Below, piece by piece: positions 37,902 through 59,507 of a stretch of DNA of 64,000 nucleotides (position 1 is its first letter; each line of letters begins with the position of its first letter). This stretch comes from a virus, in the IMG/VR virus record IMGVR_UViG_3300046170_000148, positions 64,001 through 128,000 of that record, one strand, 5' to 3'. The notes under the pieces are model-generated. The model searched no databases, was not told the DNA's origin, and saw nothing but the letters and a program-made list of their open reading frames with translations. A program made the translations under genes and the position numbers.

Positions 37902-38852
37902 TCAAGAAGCGAGAGCATATTCTACTGCTTTCTCGACTGCTTTGACTTTGCGTGATTGGTTTGCACCAAACCATGCAGAAGTCAAACGTGTGTCTGCCTC
38001 ACGACCCATCTTGTGGTCAGTCAGGTAGGTCACGCTATTTAGTGCTTGCCACCATGTGCCTTCACCAAACTCTGCGCCAGGCTGAGTTTCCAGAACCTCA
38101 TATGCTTTCTTCGCATTGGTGGTCAGGTCTTCGACAGACTGGACATTAACTTCACTCTTACCTTGATAGGTGCGAGGGAATACTTCGTTGTAATACTCAA
38201 CCAGTGAACCAACCGTGAAACGTTTGGACGAAAGAAACTCTGCGGTCTCTTTATACTGTTGGAACTTCTCATGAGCAATACCCAGAGTTTCTTTCACGGA
38301 GTCAGGATTGAATGCAGTGCGGTGGTTCAGAGATACCGAATTTGCAACCTTCTGACCAAGCGACAGTGACAGTGTGTTGTTGCACACTACACGAATCGGA
38401 GTGAACCGAACATCGATGGACTTACCATACTGATGCGGGTTAGAGAACAAAAGGTATGAGTCAACTTGGTCACCACCAAGAATGTCAAAGGTGTCTTTTA
38501 CTTTCGCAAGACCCCACACCATGTTACCATCTTTGAGTGAACCAGCGGTGTGCATTTCCATATCACCCGCAAGAACATACTCAGAGAAGAACTCAAACGC
38601 TTCGCTGTTCTGAACTGGATTCCATCCTTTACCGATGACATCCAGAACTTTGTTGTCAGAGGAACGGACAAGCGCTTGTTTACCTTCTACTGTTGCACCA
38701 GACGATGTTACGAGGTCTTCCTTCTCAACTGTCCAGTCCAGACCAGCCTTCTCCATCATCTGACGGGGAGTCAGGTCATTTGATACAGGAACACCGAGAC
38801 CGTGCCACGGAACTTCTCCTGCGTATGCCATTGTTTCTACTGCATGTGCCAT
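37902..38852 (-). CDS. DUF932-family protein
   Basis: PWHGLG, AGLDW.V, PVQN.EAF.FF, TAGSL, TPIRVVCNNTL and GTWW.A.N.VT motifs. Confidence 0.88.
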   Translation of the reverse strand: MAHAVETMAYAGEVPWHGLGVPVSNDLTPRQMMEKAGLDWTVEKEDLVTSSGATVEGKQALVRSSDNKVLDVIGKGWNPVQNSEAFEFFSEYVLAGDMEMHTAGSLKDGNMVWGLAKVKDTFDILGGDQVDSYLLFSNPHQYGKSIDVRFTPIRVVCNNTLSLSLGQKVANSVSLNHRTAFNPDSVKETLGIAHEKFQQYKETAEFLSSKRFTVGSLVEYYNEVFPRTYQGKSEVNVQSVEDLTTNAKKAYEVLETQPGAEFGEGTWWQALNSVTYLTDHKMGREADTRLTSAWFGANQSRKVKAVEKAVEYALAS

Positions 38853-38886
38853 AATCAATCTCCTTCTATTTCTCGATTATGTTCTT

Positions 38887-38915
38887 ATAATAACACAAAC
38901 TTATAATAAAGTCAA
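38887..38915 (-). promoter_or_regulatory. sigma70-type early promoter TTGACT-17-TATTAT
   Basis: Read directly upstream of the DUF932 gene. Confidence 0.65.
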
Positions 38916-38923
38916 GCGTTTTT

Positions 38924-40742
38924 TTACGCTCTAGGAGAAAAAATTTCAATCAATTCATCTTTACCCTTCACCTTGATATCACCAATCTTCTTGGTTGGCA
39001 TATCAATCTGGTCATTCGTATAAGATGATATGATAGTCTTGTAATCTATGTAGTCGCCTCGTGCGGCAGTGGCTTCTAGTCTTGCTGCAAGGTTGACCGC
39101 ATCTCCAATAACTGAGTAATCAAATCTGGATTCAGAACCCATGTTGCCAACAATACAGTCCCCAGTGTTAATTCCAGTCCCCACGTTGATAGGAGGGAGA
39201 CCAGCTTCTTCATATTTTTTTCTAAGTTCATTGGTCTTTTCCTCAATCTGAATAGCAGACTTCACTGCCATCTCTGCGTGGTTAGGGCAAGGTAACGGTG
39301 CGTTCCAGAATGCCATGATACAATCACCCATATACTTATCTATAGTGCCGCCATTGTCTTGAATGATTTTAGTCATCTGATTCAGATAATCATTGATAAG
39401 ATGCACGAGCCCTTCAGGGGTCATCGTTGTTTTTGTAGTGTTCTGATATCGGGGTGAACCCACAGATATCCATAAACAGGAATGTCATCTCTTTGCGTTC
39501 ACCACCCAACTTCATGAGACTTGGGTCTTTGGCAAGCATGTCAACCATGTCGGGTGATAGGTATGTCCCGAACTGACCCTTAATCATTTGTTTCGCCTTG
39601 AACTGCGTATAGAACTGCACAAACGAACCGTGTGCGAAGATTATAACAAATGTTATAACAGGGAAGATAGGGTCAAGGAGCATAAAGGTATTGTCGAATA
39701 TCAGTGACGCACCATTCACGAAACTTGAACTGATGATGAGGAAAACTACCCCCGAAATCACGATAGAGAGTTTAGATAACATGAATAGTATCACTATCGA
39801 TACCACTATCGTTGCGAAAAGTTCATAAAACTTAAACTCTGGCATTCGTGTGATAGTCACACCGTCAATCATCGTCTTCAACAGGTTTGCCTGAATGTCG
39901 TGGGGATACATCGCACCAACAGGAGTTGATACAACAGATGTTCCCTTGAAGGTCGCACCCAGTATCGCAATGCTTCCTGCGGGTATCTGGTCTATCTCTG
40001 TGAAGGAATATCTCTTGAACTCGTTCCAGAATGCGATACGCACATTACTATTATCGTCTGTCTGCACCACATCAAACTTCGGTATGCGAACAAATCGTAT
40101 TCCATAATCGTCTGTCTTGACTTGATAGGATACATCACCCGCAGCCACACGAAGGATATCCAATGCAAAGGCAGGATACATGCGACCCTCAAAATTCTCA
40201 ATCAAGGGGACTCTGCGTGTGATACCATCAGTGTCTTGTGTAGATGACATTGTTCCATAACCGATTGCAGCGTCCATGATTTCAGGTCGCGCAAATAACA
40301 TACCCTCAAGTTCAGGTCGGAACTCTACTGCGTCTCTTTCACCGAATGTTGCTACACCTACAGGTTTTGGTCGGGAGTCTATGTTCGTCTTATCGTTTGG
40401 TGCAATGGATACTACTGCGTTCATATCAAACAACGCATCAGCAAGTGCGTCATCACCACCGAACCTGTCTGGTTCTGACAACAAGATATTGATACCCAGT
40501 ATCGAGTTATTGAGTTTTACCAACTCATCTGCCATCGTTTCGCGGGGAATAGGATACTGACCGAACTCCTCTAGAGTCAGCTCGTCAATATCAATAAGGA
40601 CAATCTGTTCTGATTGTTTAGCGTCCTGTCCTCTTTGCATCGAGTCAAAGAAAGACAGTCTTGCACTTTCGAGTAGAAAGGGGTCAAGCAGTCTCAGGGT
40701 TACCATCAACCCCAGAGTAATAAGGACGTGCCACGTTTTCAT
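38924..40742 (-). CDS. CHASE2-domain class III adenylate cyclase (frameshift near 39420)
   Basis: N-terminal TM; CHASE2 motifs IVLIDIDE..L...GQYP.PR and DGITRRVP; three TMs; cyclase motifs FMDICGFT, DKYMGDCIMAFWNAP and DYSVIGDAVNLAARLE. Confidence 0.92.
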
Positions 40743-41846
40743 TGTTTGATATTTATAGTAGAACTACCACCACCGTTTACGGTGATAGGGTCAAACTCTC
40801 GGCCTTCGGTATCGAGGTTTATTGTTGTCTCTTCGTTATTCGATACAGATATCTCTACGATGTTCTGCACATTTCGAATCAAAGTGACTTTCTCACCATC
40901 GACAATCGTGTTGATTTGTGTATCTCCGTCAAACCCTTCTAGTGTCCCTTCTACAAGCGTTTCGCCTTTGTCTTCCTTTTCTTTCAACAACTCTGCGTCT
41001 AGGTCAGAGTATGTGTCAAGTAGATTTGTCAGGAAGTCCACATCCAGATAGTCAATGTCTAGTTCTGTAAACTCCAGATAATCACGTTCTAGTTCATCAT
41101 CTTCGAGTAGTTGCTCATCGAGAAAATCGATATCAAGAGGATTGATATTCTGCCGACTATTTACTGACGTATAGAACTCTTGTTCTGTCATTCTCTCTTT
41201 AGGTGGATTGATAATCAAAATGTTATCCAGCATATCTAGAGTCAAGTCTAGAATAGCAGGATTGCTGGGAGGCATTTCACTCACAGAGGTTGTAGTGGAT
41301 TGAAACGGTTTATTCAATACCACCTCACCAGTCATAGTTGCAACAATAATTTCACCCGATGATATCCCATTCACATCGGGTAACAGCACTACAAGTGTGC
41401 GACCAAACTCGTCTACGGTCACAGTAAAGTCTGTGCCGCGAATACCGATTGAGGCAGTCGGTGTTCTCAATCTAATATTCTCTTTTTCAATCGTCCCAAG
41501 TTTGCCTGTAATGAAACGAGCAGTTCCCTGCGCGAATGTCATTGCAAGGTCAGACTTGCTTGGGTCATCATCAAACACCACATTGTCAATCACAATGCGT
41601 GTGTGTTCGGTCATGCGAAGTTTCGAATCATCGACAAACTTCACCTGCATACGCCCCTCGCCTGTGCGAAGGTCGTCTTTTGATATTATATCGAACCCTT
41701 TTTCAGGTTCGAGTTCATTGGTATCTCTTACAACTTGTCTCCAGCCGACTGCGTCGGTCAATGAGACCTACATCCTTACTGACAGCCGGTAGCGGTGCCA
41801 GAATCAGACTGAGCGATGCATAGAGTATTATCCGTGGTAGCGTCAC
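40739..41846 (-). CDS. FecR-domain periplasmic protein with an acidic tail (frameshift near 41760)
   Basis: D.LRTG...F.DDS......T and TPTASIGIRGTDF motifs; signal peptide MTLPRIILYASLSLILAPLPAVS from a GTG at 41846 overlapping the upstream gene. Confidence 0.8.
40750..40757 (-). promoter_or_regulatory. Possible internal late promoter TATAAATA before the cyclase gene
   Basis: Exact match 7 nt before the ATG at 40742. Confidence 0.5.
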
Positions 41847-42513
41847 CTGAGCCCTCAATTTGTATGTCTAATGTATCAGACTGCAACGTTGACTCTTGTT
41901 TGATATCAATGTCCCAGTAGTTTGTTGTTCCAACGCCATCGATTGTCATAGAGTGACCATCATATCCGTCACCATCATAATCGATTGTTACATTACTTCC
42001 TAAGAAGTCAATGCTGTTTGTTGCGTTGTTGATGTCAATATCAGCAGTTACGCTGTTATAGTCACCGTCAACAATCCAGTCAACATCTGCGCCCGTGGCT
42101 TGGTCGTTATTACCAACGCTCAAGTCCAGTGTGTTATTACCACCATCCAAATCGATTACTACATTACCGCTACCAGCACCATAGGTGTCAGTTCCGTCAA
42201 TGTCGATTGTGACTGTGTTGGTGTCGCCATCGATGTCTAAATCAACATCGGTGTTGTCACCTATAATATCACCAAGAACTTTGTTGGTATCACCAACGGT
42301 ATCGATACTCAGATTGATGTTATCACCATCAACCTTCATTTTGGTTGTGTCACTAGCGTTATTACTAACTCTGTTGCCACTACCATCTTGAGTAACGTCA
42401 ATATCTGCACCAGACCCTACTTGGTCGATGTAGACCGCATTATCAGCCCATGCGAGCGATGTCCCTGCGTTTACTAGGAACAACATCACAAATATTCTTT
42501 GCAAAGTGTTCAT
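41776..42513 (-). CDS. Secreted curlin-like beta-solenoid repeat protein
   Basis: Signal peptide; repeats such as NAVYIDQVGSG, IDVTQDGSGNRV, IDTVGDTNKV, LDIDGDTNTV, IDLDGGNNTL and IVDGDYNSV. Confidence 0.75.
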   Translation of the reverse strand: MNTLQRIFVMLFLVNAGTSLAWADNAVYIDQVGSGADIDVTQDGSGNRVSNNASDTTKMKVDGDNINLSIDTVGDTNKVLGDIIGDNTDVDLDIDGDTNTVTIDIDGTDTYGAGSGNVVIDLDGGNNTLDLSVGNNDQATGADVDWIVDGDYNSVTADIDINNATNSIDFLGSNVTIDYDGDGYDGHSMTIDGVGTTNYWDIDIKQESTLQSDTLDIQIEGSGDATTDNTLCIAQSDSGTATGCQ

Positions 42514-42514
42514 T

Positions 42515-43327
42515 TTACTCTCCTGTGAATGTCCAGAACTGTTTTCTGTTTCCAAGTTCTATCAGTTCTAAGACACCTGTTTCAATTGCACGTTGAGTGG
42601 CAATCGAAACGCTTTCGTTACGGGCAGTTCCAGACTCAATCTCAACGAGTCTAGTTCCCTGTTCTACATACCGAAATACATCTCCGCCAAATGCGACAGA
42701 TAGTATGGTCTTACTTGTTATGACATCAAGCAATACCTCACCAGTCGCAACACTTATCAACCTCATGTTGATTGTCACCGTGTCACGACTAAACTCTCGT
42801 GAAGAACCGATGCCAAGATATCTTGCGCCCGAGCCTCCACTTTCGGTAGAGTGGTCATATCCCACAATACCGCCTGCAATAATCATACCAGCGAATGTCA
42901 ACGCTGGTAGTTTCTTTGCGCCATCTCCGTCATAAGAACTTCGTGTCTGTCTTATGAGTTGTCTTTCTTTTGTCAACCAGTCCAATGCAGTCCTATCGAC
43001 TACCTTGAAGAACCTGCCATTAGACGCACGAGTCAAAGCACGAATCAGATATACATCTGGTGCTTGAGTGACTGCGGTGCTGAATGATGTCCCACCGCTT
43101 GCGTTCTGTCTTTTCTGCCCTGTTTGGTCGGTGAACGAATAAATCGCTACCGTTGGCTTTCTTATCGGAGGTTCAATGTTCTGTAATTGTTCTGTAAGAA
43201 GATTTGATTGAACTTTGACTGGTTCTGGTTTCGCTGGTATATCCCAACTCGTTCCACCTAGAGTGGTGCAACTAGAAACCAAAATCGCCGATAGGAATAA
43301 CAATGACAGTTTGGCTACCATCTTCAT
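42515..43327 (-). CDS. csgG: CsgG/HfaB-family curli secretion channel lipoprotein
   Basis: Lipobox LVSSC; VAIYSFTDQTGQ, FSTAVTQ, L.KERQLIR, GGIVGYD...SGG.GARYLGIG and TGEVL...SKTILS motifs. Confidence 0.92.
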   Translation of the reverse strand: MKMVAKLSLLFLSAILVSSCTTLGGTSWDIPAKPEPVKVQSNLLTEQLQNIEPPIRKPTVAIYSFTDQTGQKRQNASGGTSFSTAVTQAPDVYLIRALTRASNGRFFKVVDRTALDWLTKERQLIRQTRSSYDGDGAKKLPALTFAGMIIAGGIVGYDHSTESGGSGARYLGIGSSREFSRDTVTINMRLISVATGEVLLDVITSKTILSVAFGGDVFRYVEQGTRLVEIESGTARNESVSIATQRAIETGVLELIELGNRKQFWTFTGE

Positions 43328-43805
43328 CAGTTACCGTTAACTCCACTTTGTTTTCTACATCATCTTTCACATATGAGATACCCGCACCTTCAATTTCAAA
43401 TTCACCTTGATTGGTTGGGTTCTCACCGAACATCTCTTCGACGAGTTGTCTGGACAGTGTAGAGTAAATTCGACTTTCTACGTTTCGTATAAACTTAGCA
43501 AGTGTCGTATTCTTTGCGTCTCGTTCTAATTGTTTTTGTAAGTCTTCTAATTCTTGTTTTAATGCTTGTTTGCGTGATGTCTCTTGATTCTCAATCGTCA
43601 GATAGTGTGATGATTGATTGACACCATTGAATGATGGCGACTTGAAGTTGTGTTCGATTGGCGCGCCTATCGCATGACTTATAGCCAGACCCCAACAGAT
43701 ACCAACTGAAAACCACAATACTGGACTAAAGATTAACTCTGATTTAGTCTTTCCTGACTTGGCCAGCATCTCCCATGCAGTTTGTTCTCTACTCGTTCTC
43801 TTCAT
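43272..43805 (-). CDS. csgF: CsgF-like curli assembly protein
   Basis: Hydrophobic leader, then HNFKSPSFNG...H.LTIENQE, F...ESRIY..LSRQL, and a terminal beta hairpin; adjacent to csgG. Confidence 0.8.
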   Translation of the reverse strand: MKRTSREQTAWEMLAKSGKTKSELIFSPVLWFSVGICWGLAISHAIGAPIEHNFKSPSFNGVNQSSHYLTIENQETSRKQALKQELEDLQKQLERDAKNTTLAKFIRNVESRIYSTLSRQLVEEMFGENPTNQGEFEIEGAGISYVKDDVENKVELTVTDEDGSQTVIVIPIGDFGF

Positions 43806-44040
43806 CGTCCTGCCTCTTCATCTCGATTGCAGTGTCTAACTTCTGCTGCAATCGTATAATGTCATTGTCAAGCATACGAATACGGTCAATCAGACCGATA
43901 AGAGTTGTATGGGTTTCACCCAGATACGCCTCAACCTTCTCCGTAATGGTCTTCCATACGAAGTAAATCATATACAGCATACCAACTGCTGCAACGATAG
44001 GGAATCCGAAATCTTTAATTGCTGTTACTATATCCATCAA
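43789..44040 (-). CDS. Small membrane/coiled-coil protein (GFPI motif)
   Basis: FGFPIVAA TM helix followed by LIDRIRMLDNDIIRL. Confidence 0.7.
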   Translation of the reverse strand: MMDIVTAIKDFGFPIVAAVGMLYMIYFVWKTITEKVEAYLGETHTTLIGLIDRIRMLDNDIIRLQQKLDTAIEMKRQDDEENE

Positions 44041-44318
44041 TCACGTCTCGCATCGTTCTTACCATCTGCTCTGGATATGCGACCTAAGTCAGGCCGAATA
44101 CCCAGAACAACACACATGGTAGTGTCGATGCGAATCATATCGTGATTCATAGTTTTAACCCTATTGTCCAAAGCACTTACAATTCCGTGGATTGATTGAA
44201 CCTGACCGATTACACCTTCCATAATGTATCGTAGTGTCAGGAACATAAAGAACCCACCGATGAGTGCTGCGGCAATAGGAAATCCCAGTTCTGCAATCAA
44301 ACTGAATATTTCATTCAT
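44037..44318 (-). CDS. Small membrane/coiled-coil protein (GFPI motif), paralog of its neighbour
   Basis: LGFPIAAA TM helix followed by LDNRVKTMNHDMIRID. Confidence 0.7.
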   Translation of the reverse strand: MNEIFSLIAELGFPIAAALIGGFFMFLTLRYIMEGVIGQVQSIHGIVSALDNRVKTMNHDMIRIDTTMCVVLGIRPDLGRISRADGKNDARRD

Positions 44319-44347
44319 ATCGCACACTTACCTCTTTATCTCATTCC

Positions 44348-44355
44348 TATTTATA
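44348..44355 (-). promoter_or_regulatory. T4-type late promoter of the curli/cyclase operon
   Basis: Exact TATAAATA followed by a GAGGT SD. Confidence 0.75.
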
Positions 44356-44375: not shown

Positions 44376-44407
44376 CAAAAAAATGAGACGCTAACCGTGG
44401 GCGTCTC
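44376..44407 (-). terminator. Intrinsic terminator
   Basis: GAGACGC-loop-GCGTCTC followed by ATTTTTTT. Confidence 0.7.
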
Positions 44408-45957: not shown

Positions 45958-46035
45958 TGGTCGGGGTTGGAAGATTCGAACTTCCGACCTCTCGCTCCCA
46001 AAGCGAGCGCACTACCAGGGCTGTGCTAAACCCCG
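45958..46035 (-). tRNA. tRNA-Pro(TGG)
   Basis: CGGGGTT...CTCGC-TT-TGG-GA-GCGAG...GGAAG-TTCGAAT-CTTCC-AACCCCG-ACCA cloverleaf with encoded CCA. Confidence 0.95.
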
Positions 46036-46220: not shown

Positions 46221-46240
46221 TTCATACTCCTAATAATTAG

Positions 46241-46580
46241 TGGGGACTTCTGTTGCTAGGCGTCCCCTGACCCCGAAAACTATGCGGCTAGCGCATAATC
46301 CTCATGTGCGTAATTATCGTTTGCACTTACGAGTTTGTTGCGCTCTTGCGGATGGGATTGCCCGTCCGTCTCACAGGTGGCTTCCGCACCTATTCTCCAC
46401 ATTCCTAATCAATACCTGTCGAACCTGTTTCGCCCCCGAAACTTTAGTGTGAGGGGTTTCTGCTCCTCTGCTACAACCCCTCACGGAACTCACAGATTGG
46501 GCCTCTCCTTGAGAGAGATTGGTGGAGGCGGTGGGTATCGCACCCACGTCCAGTATACCTTTTGGTTTGCTTCAACGAAT
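46241..46580 (-). ncRNA. ssrA: Circularly permuted two-piece tmRNA; tag (A)ANDNYAHEDYALAA
   Basis: Acceptor piece ends GTGGGTGCGATACCCACCGCCTCCACCA (46520); coding piece starts GGGGGCGAAACAGGTTCGAC (46437) giving the G3-U alanine pair; tag ORF 46280-46324. Confidence 0.92.
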
Positions 46581-46585
46581 ACCCT

Positions 46586-46593
46586 TATTTATA
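46586..46593 (-). promoter_or_regulatory. T4-type late promoter of the tmRNA
   Basis: Exact TATAAATA immediately upstream of the acceptor piece. Confidence 0.7.
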
Positions 46594-46741
46594 CTCCAAG
46601 AATATTTCCTGCTTTTCCAATATCAAGAGTGCCACCATTCCGCATGTGTTCCTCTACTTGTTCAAAGTAGAATGCAGCGTCTTCGTGACCATACTCCTGA
46701 AGAACGTCCTTACACGCCTTGAAGAATAACATTGTCTTCAT
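46589..46741 (-). CDS. Small hypothetical protein
   Basis: MKTMLFF...AAFYFEQVEEH; the start may lie further upstream (46789). Confidence 0.55.
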   Translation of the reverse strand: MKTMLFFKACKDVLQEYGHEDAAFYFEQVEEHMRNGGTLDIGKAGNILGV

Positions 46742-51687: not shown

Positions 51688-52723
51688 TCATTCAACGGCA
51701 TCGACAATCTCATCCATGTCTACTTTTTGCGCCAGTCCGATTGAGTATTGTGACTTGATGAACTCTGCGAAGTCTGTGTTCTCGAAGATGGGTGTCCAAA
51801 ATTCCTTCGTGAGTGTTTCCTTCTGACGAACTTTCGCCTCGTCACCAGCGACACTATACCAACCATTAGATGGTTTAACAACATAACCGCCAGCCAAAGC
51901 AACATCAAGGAGACCACTAAACTGCTGGACGCCACCTTCCCAAGAAACAGAGATAGGGATTTTACTTTTCTCTTTAACATAGCGAGACTTCTCTACATTG
52001 ATTACAAAGTGATAACCTTTGATTTCTGTGCCAACCTTGTCTTGTTGGCGACCCAGAATCCAGATGTTGTCAGCACTGTAGTAGATACCTGTGCCACCAC
52101 CTACGATGTCTTTCGGGAAGAGACCAATCTCTTTGTATGTGTGGTTGACGGCCAGCATTGGAATGTTCTTCATAGTCAGGTATGGGGTTATCATACGAAA
52201 CAAACCTTTCAATGCTTTTAGCACGAGACATATCTGCAACCGACTTTTCATTGATTGCATCTTCGAGTTCTTTCTTAGATGCAAGGTTACCAATGGAGTC
52301 GATGACAACGATGACATTATCTTCTCGTGTCAGTTCCTCAAGTTGACCAATAATGTCAAACTTGAGTTCCTCTACATTCGCAATCGGCGTATGCAGAACT
52401 CGGCTAGTGTCAATCCCGAACTGCTCGAAGTAAGATTGGGGTGAACCAAACTCACTATCATAGAAAAGCAGAACTGCATCTTTCTTCTCTCTCAGATATG
52501 CACCTGCCATAAGCAGGGCAAAAGAGGTCTTAAAGTGCTTACTTGGGCCTGCAAGGACTGTAAGTCCTGGCGTGACACCACCGTCAATACTACCAGATAG
52601 GGCAACGTTCACCATTGGAACATCTGTTTGCACCATATCTTTTTCAGTAAAGAATTTACTCTCAGACAGAATCTCCGTCGTTTTGATTTTCGAGTTCTTC
52701 TTCAGTTTGTCCATAATCGACAT
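51688..52723 (-). CDS. uvsX: RecA-like recombinase UvsX (frameshift near 52210)
   Basis: AGPSKHFKT, YDSEFG, IDSIGNLASKKE, GGGTG..YSAD and EKSRYVKEKS motifs. Confidence 0.95.
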
Positions 52724-57159: not shown

Positions 57160-59507
57160 TGTATTTATCCAGTGACAGTTCGCGAGGCAAGTTCACAGGA
57201 TAAGAGATGACATTCTCCTTGATAGGATTGGGAGTCTTGAGATAGACGAACTTAATCTTCTCACCATTCTTGATAGTCTCATACCGCATACCTTTGGTGT
57301 GGTGATTGAACAACAACGCACCCCGCACATGGATAGGTGTCCCCTTCATGTAGATAGAGTCACGGTCTTTCCACTTGTTAACCGCACTGACCCCACGAGG
57401 GAACGATACATCCTCGGCGGGTAAGGCTGTTGAACTCACTGCGGAAGTTAGAGATAAACTTCTGTGTATCAACCTCAGTCCCCTCGATAATCACACGGAA
57501 GATTTCTTTGAACTTATCGCGCACGACCATCGGGGTCGATGACTTGACCGCTTCGATACCCATCATCTTGAGTTTGGGTTGTGCATACTGCACACCCTCA
57601 GAGTTGTGAACATTGAGAATGTATCGTTTCTTTGCAACCCAGATAGCACGGTCAGCAATCACCTCACGACCCATCTCCATACGATTGATGTATGCGTTGG
57701 TATACTGTGCGAGTTCATCATAAGACTTCTCAAGAACCTTCTCAAAATGTTCACGACAAATCTTGTCAAGAAACTTCACAGGTTCTTTGGGGTCAAACTT
57801 CTTGACCAGTTTAGACATATTGATATAGAGCGAGTCAGTGTCAATGGCAATTACATAGTCATCATCGGTAGAAAGGAGATTATTCATTTCCGTGTTGACT
57901 GCGCGTTCTGCCCATTTGATTGACAACTGACCCGCAAGTGTGATGGACTCCGCGACCCTTTGGTCAAAGTAACGAAACCATCGATTACCCAACGCACCAT
58001 AGAGACTGTTCATGAGGATTTTAATAGCCATCTGTTGGTTGTCGAGTTGAGAGATTTTATTGGAGAGAGACTTGGTAGGTGTCTGTTCGTATTCCTGTTG
58101 TGCCTCAAGCATCTCCTTCTTGATGACACGGCGTTCACTGTAATACTGACGAATGATACTAGGGATGACACCTTCCTTGTCGTGACGGAAACGCACACCC
58201 GAAGGGGCAAGTGCATAGTTCTGGTCACGGGGAGTCTGTTGACGCAACATGCGTTCAACCGATGTGTCAGACAGACCATCAACCACAGTCTCAGGTGACA
58301 TGTTGTATTGCACAATGATGTTCGGATACAGAGAGTTCAGGTCAAAGGATGTGACCCACTCGTGCGACCCGACTTGGGGGTCTTTTACATACCCACCTTC
58401 ATAGTCACCTTTGGACTTCTCAACCTTCGGGGGAACTGCGACCTTCTGTTGGTTCAACAGACGATACAGGATTGTATCCCAGATAGTTGTAGTCCCAAGC
58501 ACGTCCTCATAGTTCACACCACCACGATAGGCCATCGTGAATGCGAGAGTGATGATACCCAACTTCTCTTCCAACTTGTCCACCAGTTCAACGTCCTTGA
58601 TGTTGTAGTCAATAAACTTCTGGTGGTCTTGCTTATAGAGAGTGTGGAGATTACCATACTCTTCATACGATAGTTTGCTCTCACCCAGAACAACATTCGC
58701 AATGTGGTCGAGTCGATAGGACTCTTGTTGTCCAAGCGTGTTGTAGGTGAACTTACGAAACAAATCAAAGTAGTCAAGTTGTGCGATACCCATCAAGTCA
58801 TAAGTGTCAACATCATTCATGCCAAACTTGTTTGCACGAATTTTACGAGGCGATACCACACCCCACGGAGAGAACTTCTTGACCGACTCCTCACCAATCA
58901 CCTTGCGTGTGCGGTTGACCAGATACGGAATATCAAACTGTTTACTGTTCCAACCAGTCACAACATCAGGTGTCCCGTGGTTAGACCAGTAGTTCAGGAA
59001 TGTGAGAAACAAGTCGAGTTCAGACTCACACTTGTTGTAGATAGTATCCTCACGAGGCTCATAGTCACCCAGACCCCACACACGATAGAAGTCTTCCTTA
59101 GATGACTTGGTGCAGATAGAGATGACAGGATAGTCTGCCTTGTCAGGTTCGGGGAATCCCTCATCAGATGCAACCTCGATATCGATTGTGGTAATCACAA
59201 TCTGGTTCTGGTCAAACTTGATGTCAGACGGGAAAGTCTCGGCAATGAACTGCGAGACGAAGTTGTTCATCCCATACACATTCACAGTGGGGACATGTTG
59301 ATATTGTTTGATGAAGTCTGTCGCATCGCGCATCGAGTCAAAGGTCATAGGCGCAACAGGTTTACCTTCGAGTGTTCTCCATTCACTCTGACCGTTGACA
59401 AACAATGTAGGTTTGAAAGGGATGCGTTTCTTGATGCGTTCTGCACCATCGTAACCGCGATACAGAATAGAGTTGCCGTATCGTTCTACGGATGTATAAA
59501 ATTTCAT
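57047..59507 (-). CDS. 43: Family B DNA polymerase (T4 gp43), frameshift near 57410
   Basis: DIE exonuclease, [24 protein letters not shown] and GTPIHVRG motifs. Confidence 0.97.

Follow-up and report, generated by a model that had tools for sequence, protein, structure and literature searches.

What use could a phage make of a curli-type secretion pore that is encoded side by side with a membrane-bound enzyme of the kind that produces cyclic AMP (cAMP)? The question is raised by seven genes at positions 38924-44355 of the stretch of DNA analysed here (the window: 64,000 nucleotides of IMG/VR virus record IMGVR_UViG_3300046170_000148, a 144-kb record that is 87% complete). Judged by its genes and their order, this block is the already published type VIII secretion (curli-like) cassette of pelagiphages, with its FecR-domain protein and adenylate cyclase. 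We propose, with moderate confidence, that it is a late type VIII cassette in which the FecR-domain protein and the CHASE2 domain of the cyclase form a pair that would turn a cue linked to the pore, to the secreted solenoid or to the envelope into cAMP.

All seven genes lie on the minus strand, packed without gaps or overlapping, and together they take up about 4% of the genome. An initial annotation of the window had given their order, and each gene was located where that annotation placed it; Pfam supports the CsgF, CsgG, FecR, CHASE2 and cyclase assignments. In the direction of transcription the genes are:

44037-44327, minus strand: small membrane protein 1; its likely start is the ATG at 44318, which gives 93 amino acids (aa); it matches PHROG 18771 at 1e-31

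43789-44040, minus strand: small membrane protein 2, 83 aa, a paralogue of protein 1, whose start overlaps the stop codon of protein 1

43272-43805, minus strand: CsgF homologue (PF10614, 5.9e-13) with a signal peptide and the motif F-K-S-P-S-F-N-G at its mature N-terminus

42515-43327, minus strand: CsgG outer-membrane lipoprotein (PF03783, 5.5e-45), whose lipobox ends in Cys20

41776-42513, minus strand: secreted, acidic, curlin-like beta-solenoid protein, 245 aa from its ATG, with a signal peptide and a C-terminal Cys pair

40739-41858, minus strand: exported FecR-domain protein (PF04773, 1e-11), with the mature part at 40739-41752 and the signal-peptide part at about 41754-41858

38924-40742, minus strand: CHASE2-transmembrane-class III adenylate cyclase (CHASE2, PF05226, 1.8e-31; Guanylate_cyc, PF00211, 5e-17)

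The last two genes are thus present as the initial annotation had claimed, but both are split by a +1 insertion in this record, a circumstance that is weighed below.

The setting of the block is that of an HTVC008M-like, T4-like marine phage. Protein searches place its closest isolated relatives in the Kyanoviridae, and 90 HTVC008M open reading frames (ORFs) of at least 80 aa match the record, which has a G+C content of about 42%; megablast of the block against isolated phages gave no match, and the relatives described here were found by protein searches. Curli genes were described in pelagimyophages by Zaragoza-Solas et al. 2020 (PMC7029224), and a role in lysis was proposed for CsgGF by Buchholz et al. 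2022 (PMC9004378). The same cluster was reported by Wittmers et al. 2022 (PMC9599517) in pelagiphages of podovirus and myovirus types, where one or two "histidine kinases" are joined by CsgF, CsgG, CsgA/B, FecR, in some cases another CsgA/B, and an adenylate cyclase; these authors also described its alphaproteobacterial affinity and its expression in metatranscriptomes (PMC9599517). The initial annotation had put forward a phage-encoded circuit of curli, FecR and cyclase, and while its parts do co-occur, the combination is not a new insight.

How closely, then, are the pore and the putative sensor bound to each other? We gathered 54 related viral contigs with CsgG at 62-100% identity, and in 54/54 the gene order is identical as far as each contig reaches, with the cyclase present in every one of the 44 contigs that have at least 2.1 kb downstream of csgG. 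HTVC008M (KC465899) and Methylophilales phage Melnitz (MZ577097) have the same block order. Joint conservation of the csg, FecR and cyclase genes, which the initial annotation had named as a check on its proposal, is therefore found well beyond this one record. A FecR profile search also led to bacterial copies: a 396-kb Henriciella contig carries CsgF, CsgG, a repeat protein, FecR and a CHASE2 cyclase contiguously and flanked by housekeeping genes, and two Caulobacteraceae contigs carry the same five genes contiguously and without the small membrane proteins. In a Maricaulis contig the series runs as far as FecR, with no cyclase homologue found on that contig.

It might be supposed that FecR and cyclase belong to ordinary alphaproteobacterial curli operons. 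We reject this, because in Caulobacterales, the order of Henriciella, 0/20 strong CsgG loci have FecR or a CHASE2 cyclase within 9 kb (none of the 20 comes from the unpublished genome G126, which gave a weak match only). In a tree of CsgG, all of the FecR/cyclase-linked copies, phage and bacterial, fall on one side of a branch with 100/99 support, with the bacterial ones nested among those of phages, and the 20 Caulobacterales CsgG proteins fall on the other; the tree is midpoint-rooted and gives no direction of transfer between phages and bacteria. As far as these sequence comparisons can tell, the secretion pore and the FecR-cyclase pair are co-inherited as one lineage that is common to phages and a few bacteria.

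Short contigs that carry the block as phages have it, complete with the two small membrane proteins, were also met in metagenome-assembled genomes binned as Saprospirales, Pelagibacter, Planctomycetaceae and Flavobacteriaceae (L060, L063, L064 and L065, respectively). These are probably phage contigs misbinned into bacterial genomes.

The cyclase has retained what catalysis is expected to need. Its cyclase domain, searched in the form of a near-identical intact relative, has as its best solved relative CyaB of Pseudomonas aeruginosa (3r5g, 3.6e-34), and alignment to that structure identifies the two metal-binding Asp residues, the adenine-selecting Lys/Asp pair and the transition-state Asn and Arg. 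These six residues (D, K, D, D, N, R) are kept in 31-32 of 32 distinct viral cyclase homologues, in agreement with the initial annotation, which had read the catalytic residues as preserved.

The FecR-domain protein is closely interlocked with its neighbours: its signal peptide is encoded out of frame within the 3' end of the curlin gene, as it is in all relatives, and its stop codon overlaps the start of the cyclase (ATGA). Relatives have intact FecR proteins of 369-389 aa in which a short Sec-type signal peptide leads straight into the FecR domain, with no N-terminal anti-sigma domain. A role as an iron anti-sigma regulator of the FecI/FecR/FecA type is therefore not supported, the signal peptide standing where such a regulator has its cytoplasmic anti-sigma domain and membrane anchor. 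Neither an extracytoplasmic function (ECF) sigma factor nor a TonB-dependent transducer was found among the ORFs of the operon, to which that search was directed.

What might such a protein do instead? Among 70 more distant bacterial FecR loci, 46 have a CHASE2 cyclase homologue within 10 kb, and on this gene-neighbourhood evidence FecR beside a CHASE2 protein is a widespread bacterial pair. For instance, a LysM-FecR protein adjoins a CHASE2 kinase in Burkholderia and P. aeruginosa (PMC5192318). In Sinorhizobium meliloti the FecR-domain protein SMc02177 belongs to the cAMP-dependent Clr regulon (PMC5498481), and the CHASE2 cyclases of that organism signal through the outer-membrane protein NsrA (PMC13001267). 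A Neptuniibacter chromosome (L082, 7601-18512) carries FecR, a SlipAM/TPR outer-membrane barrel, a second FecR, a class II cAMP phosphodiesterase, a GAF-T2SSE ATPase, a CHASE2 adenylate cyclase and a GAF-HD-GYP protein, and this cluster has the appearance of an entire locus for cAMP-based envelope sensing that has no CsgG.

In the secretion arm, the assignments of CsgF and CsgG are solid. CsgG matches the structures of E. coli CsgG over residues 12-267 (2.7e-38), with the Phe alone of the constriction residues kept in the alignment; CsgF had no sequence match among solved structures. In agreement with the initial annotation, no csgE was recognized, PF10627 having no match in the whole record (87% complete, as given above), and neither CsgD nor CsgC was found among the ORFs of the operon. 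The secreted protein is the least certain of the set. It has one Curlin_rpt repeat, which scores 18.6 bits in the whole protein, below the Pfam cut-off, and 22.4 bits in a six-frame search; outside this recognizable repeat it is Asp-rich, and it ends in a cysteine pair (C232 and C244) that is invariant in 31 homologues. The fold is predicted to be a beta-solenoid with a mean predicted local distance difference test score (pLDDT) of 77.7. When this model was searched against the PDB with Foldseek, nothing matched at E <= 0.001; a slower all-against-all aligner gave CsgA (8c50) as the top structural match (Z 18.4, root-mean-square deviation 8.9, 214 residues aligned), with generic beta-helices next at Z 16-17. 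The predicted solenoid fold and the closest structural match are compatible with the description of this protein as curlin-like in the initial annotation, but the single sub-threshold repeat and the generic beta-helices close behind CsgA make the curlin label softer than the other domain assignments. Some of the related contigs have gaps of 400-900 bp between FecR and cyclase, which we considered as sites for a second curlin gene; no matching ORF is present there.

Both small membrane proteins have a GFP[IV] motif, a single hydrophobic helix and a conserved C-terminal helix, and neither was assigned to a Pfam family; both match PHROG 18771. Their similarity to a holin family (PHROG 4898) is weak, at 6.5e-4 and 4.2e-3, the latter value being that of protein 1, and the leads to YvrJ are below threshold. 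Among isolated phages, protein 1 is found only in those that carry the curli block, and the bacterial copies of the block are without the small proteins. From this distribution the two proteins, having been seen only in phages, would be phage-only additions to the cassette. We do not follow their designation as histidine kinases (Wittmers et al. 2022): they are just 83-93 aa long, HisKA/HATPase domains are absent from 36/36 homologues even at E up to 1, and no His is conserved across the two paralogues.

The signals that surround the block bear on when it is expressed:

44376-44407, minus strand: intrinsic terminator of the upstream gene (7-bp GC-rich stem, 9-nt loop, T-run), the 5' border of the unit

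44348-44355, minus strand: the motif TATAAATA of T4-type late promoters, which precedes the first gene by about 30 nt

38887-38931, minus strand: the end of the unit on its 3' side, where a weak hairpin spans the cyclase stop and is followed by a sigma-70-like promoter (TTGACT-17 nt-TATTAT) for the next gene

The motif TATAAATA, which the initial annotation had already taken for a late promoter, occurs 10 times in the window as compared to 2.3 expected, with all copies on the minus (coding) strand. Taken together with the packing of the genes, these signals indicate late expression of the block as a single, translationally coupled operon under a T4-type promoter. A second copy within the block (40750-40757, minus strand) was not counted as a promoter; it falls within the last FecR codons, 8 nt ahead of the cyclase start, and is probably a by-product of the coding sequence.

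Around the block, the gene that follows it (37902-38858, minus strand, with the sigma-70-like promoter of its own) encodes a 318-aa protein of PHROG 1221, a family with no function assigned, and in many related contigs the PHROG 1221 gene likewise comes after the block, either immediately or at a distance of a few kb. On its upstream side, the block is closely preceded by a permuted transfer-messenger RNA (tmRNA) of alphaproteobacterial type (46239-46630, minus strand), which matches Rfam RF04321 with 105 bits and RF01849 with 101 bits, and by a tRNA (45961-46035, minus strand), both placed as they are in Melnitz.

How might these parts work together in an infected cell? We suggest that Sec would export the lipoprotein CsgG together with CsgF, which would make up an outer-membrane pore, and that the acidic curlin-like solenoid would leave the cell through it. 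The FecR-domain protein would be delivered to the periplasm, and the cyclase would sit in the inner membrane with CHASE2 facing the periplasm and its intact class III catalytic domain in the cytoplasm. By analogy with the bacterial FecR-CHASE2 pairs, the FecR-domain protein may be the periplasmic partner of CHASE2, and the two might then report the state of the pore or solenoid, or an envelope cue that reaches the periplasm via the pore, by making cAMP.

Several observations weigh against this reading. The predicted structure of the FecR protein is unusable (pLDDT 39.5), and that CsgG, the curlin-like protein, FecR and CHASE2 touch one another, or have a part in timing lysis, is something that we infer rather than observe. 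The S. meliloti FecR protein SMc02177, itself a Clr target, was found to be dispensable for signal perception (PMC5498481). The cyclic nucleotide-binding domain PF00027 was not found in the phage record, and it occurs in just 3/81 Pelagibacter-family genomes, a group that stands in here for the host of this phage. A class III cyclase occurs in 2/81 of the same genomes, which makes cAMP signalling look out of place in the likely host group.

A more immediate difficulty is whether the sensor arm is intact in this phage at all. The +1 insertion at about 39416 splits the cyclase between its first metal-binding Asp and the Lys/Asp2 motif, that at about 41753 separates the signal peptide of FecR from its mature domain, and a third, at 44399, lies in the terminator loop and was recognized relative to the closest relative (L004). 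All three are unique to this record, being absent from four relatives of 84-97% DNA identity. FecR and cyclase might thus be truly inactivated in this variant, leaving the secretion arm of CsgF, CsgG and solenoid to work alone: two independent insertions fall in just these two genes, neither in a long homopolymer run, and the joint loss of two partners is what relaxed selection would be expected to produce. It is the rest of the record that argues otherwise. Relative to HTVC008M, the DNA polymerase (window positions about 57415-57420), UvsX (about 52212-52217), the tail sheath and the prohead protease (G000 about 6695 and about 2225, outside the window) are frameshifted as well, and since these are genes that the phage cannot lose, the FecR and cyclase frameshifts are, on this comparison, most likely sequence errors and not gene decay. 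With five frameshifts spread over about 57 kb of conserved coding sequence, a block of 5.4 kb that contains two of them is unremarkable, and the pattern suggests an error-prone assembly. Moreover, FecR and cyclase are both intact in the 97%-identical relative, and the cyclase is a single frame in every related contig except the fragmented L016. We therefore reject selective decay of the sensor arm as the main explanation, and because the insertions lie outside long homopolymers we leave to a real inactivation in this variant a modest probability, small as it is. The exceptional contig, L016 (5874-8363), has FecR and cyclase each in several ORF fragments, so that its sensor arm too is broken, by error or by decay.

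Other purposes for the block can also be imagined. Extending the proposal of Buchholz et al. 2022, the operon might be a device for timing lysis, in which the CsgG/CsgF pore and two holin-like proteins permeabilise or depolarise the envelope late in infection, with FecR and cyclase tuning the moment. The late promoter, the absence of a CsgE gate from the record, the lysis role proposed for CsgGF (PMC9004378) and the phage-only, single-helix, holin-like build of the small proteins with their weak PHROG holin matches all fit such a device. An outer-membrane pore, however, does not depolarise the inner membrane, the holin similarity is as weak as described above, with YvrJ leads that stay below threshold, and a simple pore has no need of a conserved secreted solenoid or a catalytically intact cyclase; furthermore, the five-gene core is also found in bacterial chromosomes, where lysis is no aim. 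We regard a lysis-timing device as unlikely, if worth keeping in sight. The initial annotation favoured an outside-to-inside relay in which cAMP reprograms host regulons of the CRP type, for example after superinfection or cell contact. Here the co-occurrence of the parts and the canonical cyclase are in its favour, and the S. meliloti CHASE2 cyclases with NsrA and Clr (PMC13001267) are a precedent; the scarcity of both PF00027 and class III cyclases described above has weakened the idea, and it now seems improbable to us. Least credible is that the Csg proteins are structural parts of the virion with no connection to FecR and cyclase. Late expression would be in keeping with this, as would the fact that the operon adjoins tail genes in HTVC008M, but the lipoprotein signal of CsgG, the Sec signal peptides of the other proteins, the same five-gene block in bacterial chromosomes and the strict co-inheritance with FecR and cyclase make it very improbable indeed. 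The cassette with a FecR-CHASE2 pair that reads the pore, the solenoid or the envelope is the explanation we retain.

At a more speculative level, the FecR-CHASE2 pair could be a general periplasm-spanning sensor that is fitted to varied outer-membrane channels, in the present block to CsgG, in Neptuniibacter to the SlipAM-like barrel and in Sinorhizobium to NsrA. The CsgG-linked version would have been taken up by marine phages, which added two holin-like proteins; in hosts without cAMP signalling of their own, the level of cAMP, and with it the moment of lysis, would then depend on a cue at the envelope, for instance superinfection or cell contact. We offer this generalization as an improbable one. 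If the retained explanation holds, the infected cell would gain a secretion pore, a surface protein and a second-messenger enzyme of a kind mostly lacking in the likely host group. Since no canonical receptor for cAMP was found, the target of the signal is the key question. The practical point for users of this record is that its frameshifts are probably errors.

How does the block compare with known systems? What the present comparison appears to add is that the pore and the sensor pair share one lineage, that the pair is common in bacteria, that the domains give no support to two published labels, iron regulator and histidine kinase, and that no canonical cAMP receptor was found. The published pelagiphage type VIII cassette (PMC9599517, PMC7029224, PMC9004378) is like the block described here in its genes, their order and the T4-like marine phage setting. 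HTVC008M and Melnitz have a second curlin-repeat gene between FecR and cyclase, whereas the clade of this phage is without it; further differences are that FecR and cyclase are frameshifted in this record and that the small proteins published as kinases show no kinase domain here. With the curli system of E. coli (csgBAC/csgDEFG) the block shares CsgG, the CsgF domain and a secreted solenoid that has CsgA as its top structural match. The E. coli system includes CsgE, CsgD and CsgC, none of which was found here in the searches given above (CsgE in the whole record, CsgD and CsgC among the operon ORFs), and its CsgA and CsgB have several curlin repeats as compared to the one recognizable repeat of the phage protein, which is part of a system linked to FecR and cyclase.

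The S. meliloti cyclases CyaD1, CyaD2 and CyaK, with NsrA and Clr, offer a parallel for the sensor arm, because an outer-membrane beta-barrel is needed there for an external cue to activate CHASE2 cyclases. NsrA is not a CsgG, and a cAMP receptor, Clr, is known in that system as compared to none found here. There is a likeness also to the bacterial FecR-CHASE2 pairs as a class (the Burkholderia BiofilmReg operon, P. aeruginosa, and S. meliloti SMc02177 with CyaD1/CyaD2/CyaK), in which an exported FecR protein stands beside a receptor with a periplasmic CHASE2 domain, as it does here. The output of these pairs varies, being a histidine kinase in Burkholderia and a cyclase in the block, and in the latter the pair is joined to a type VIII operon and carried by a phage.

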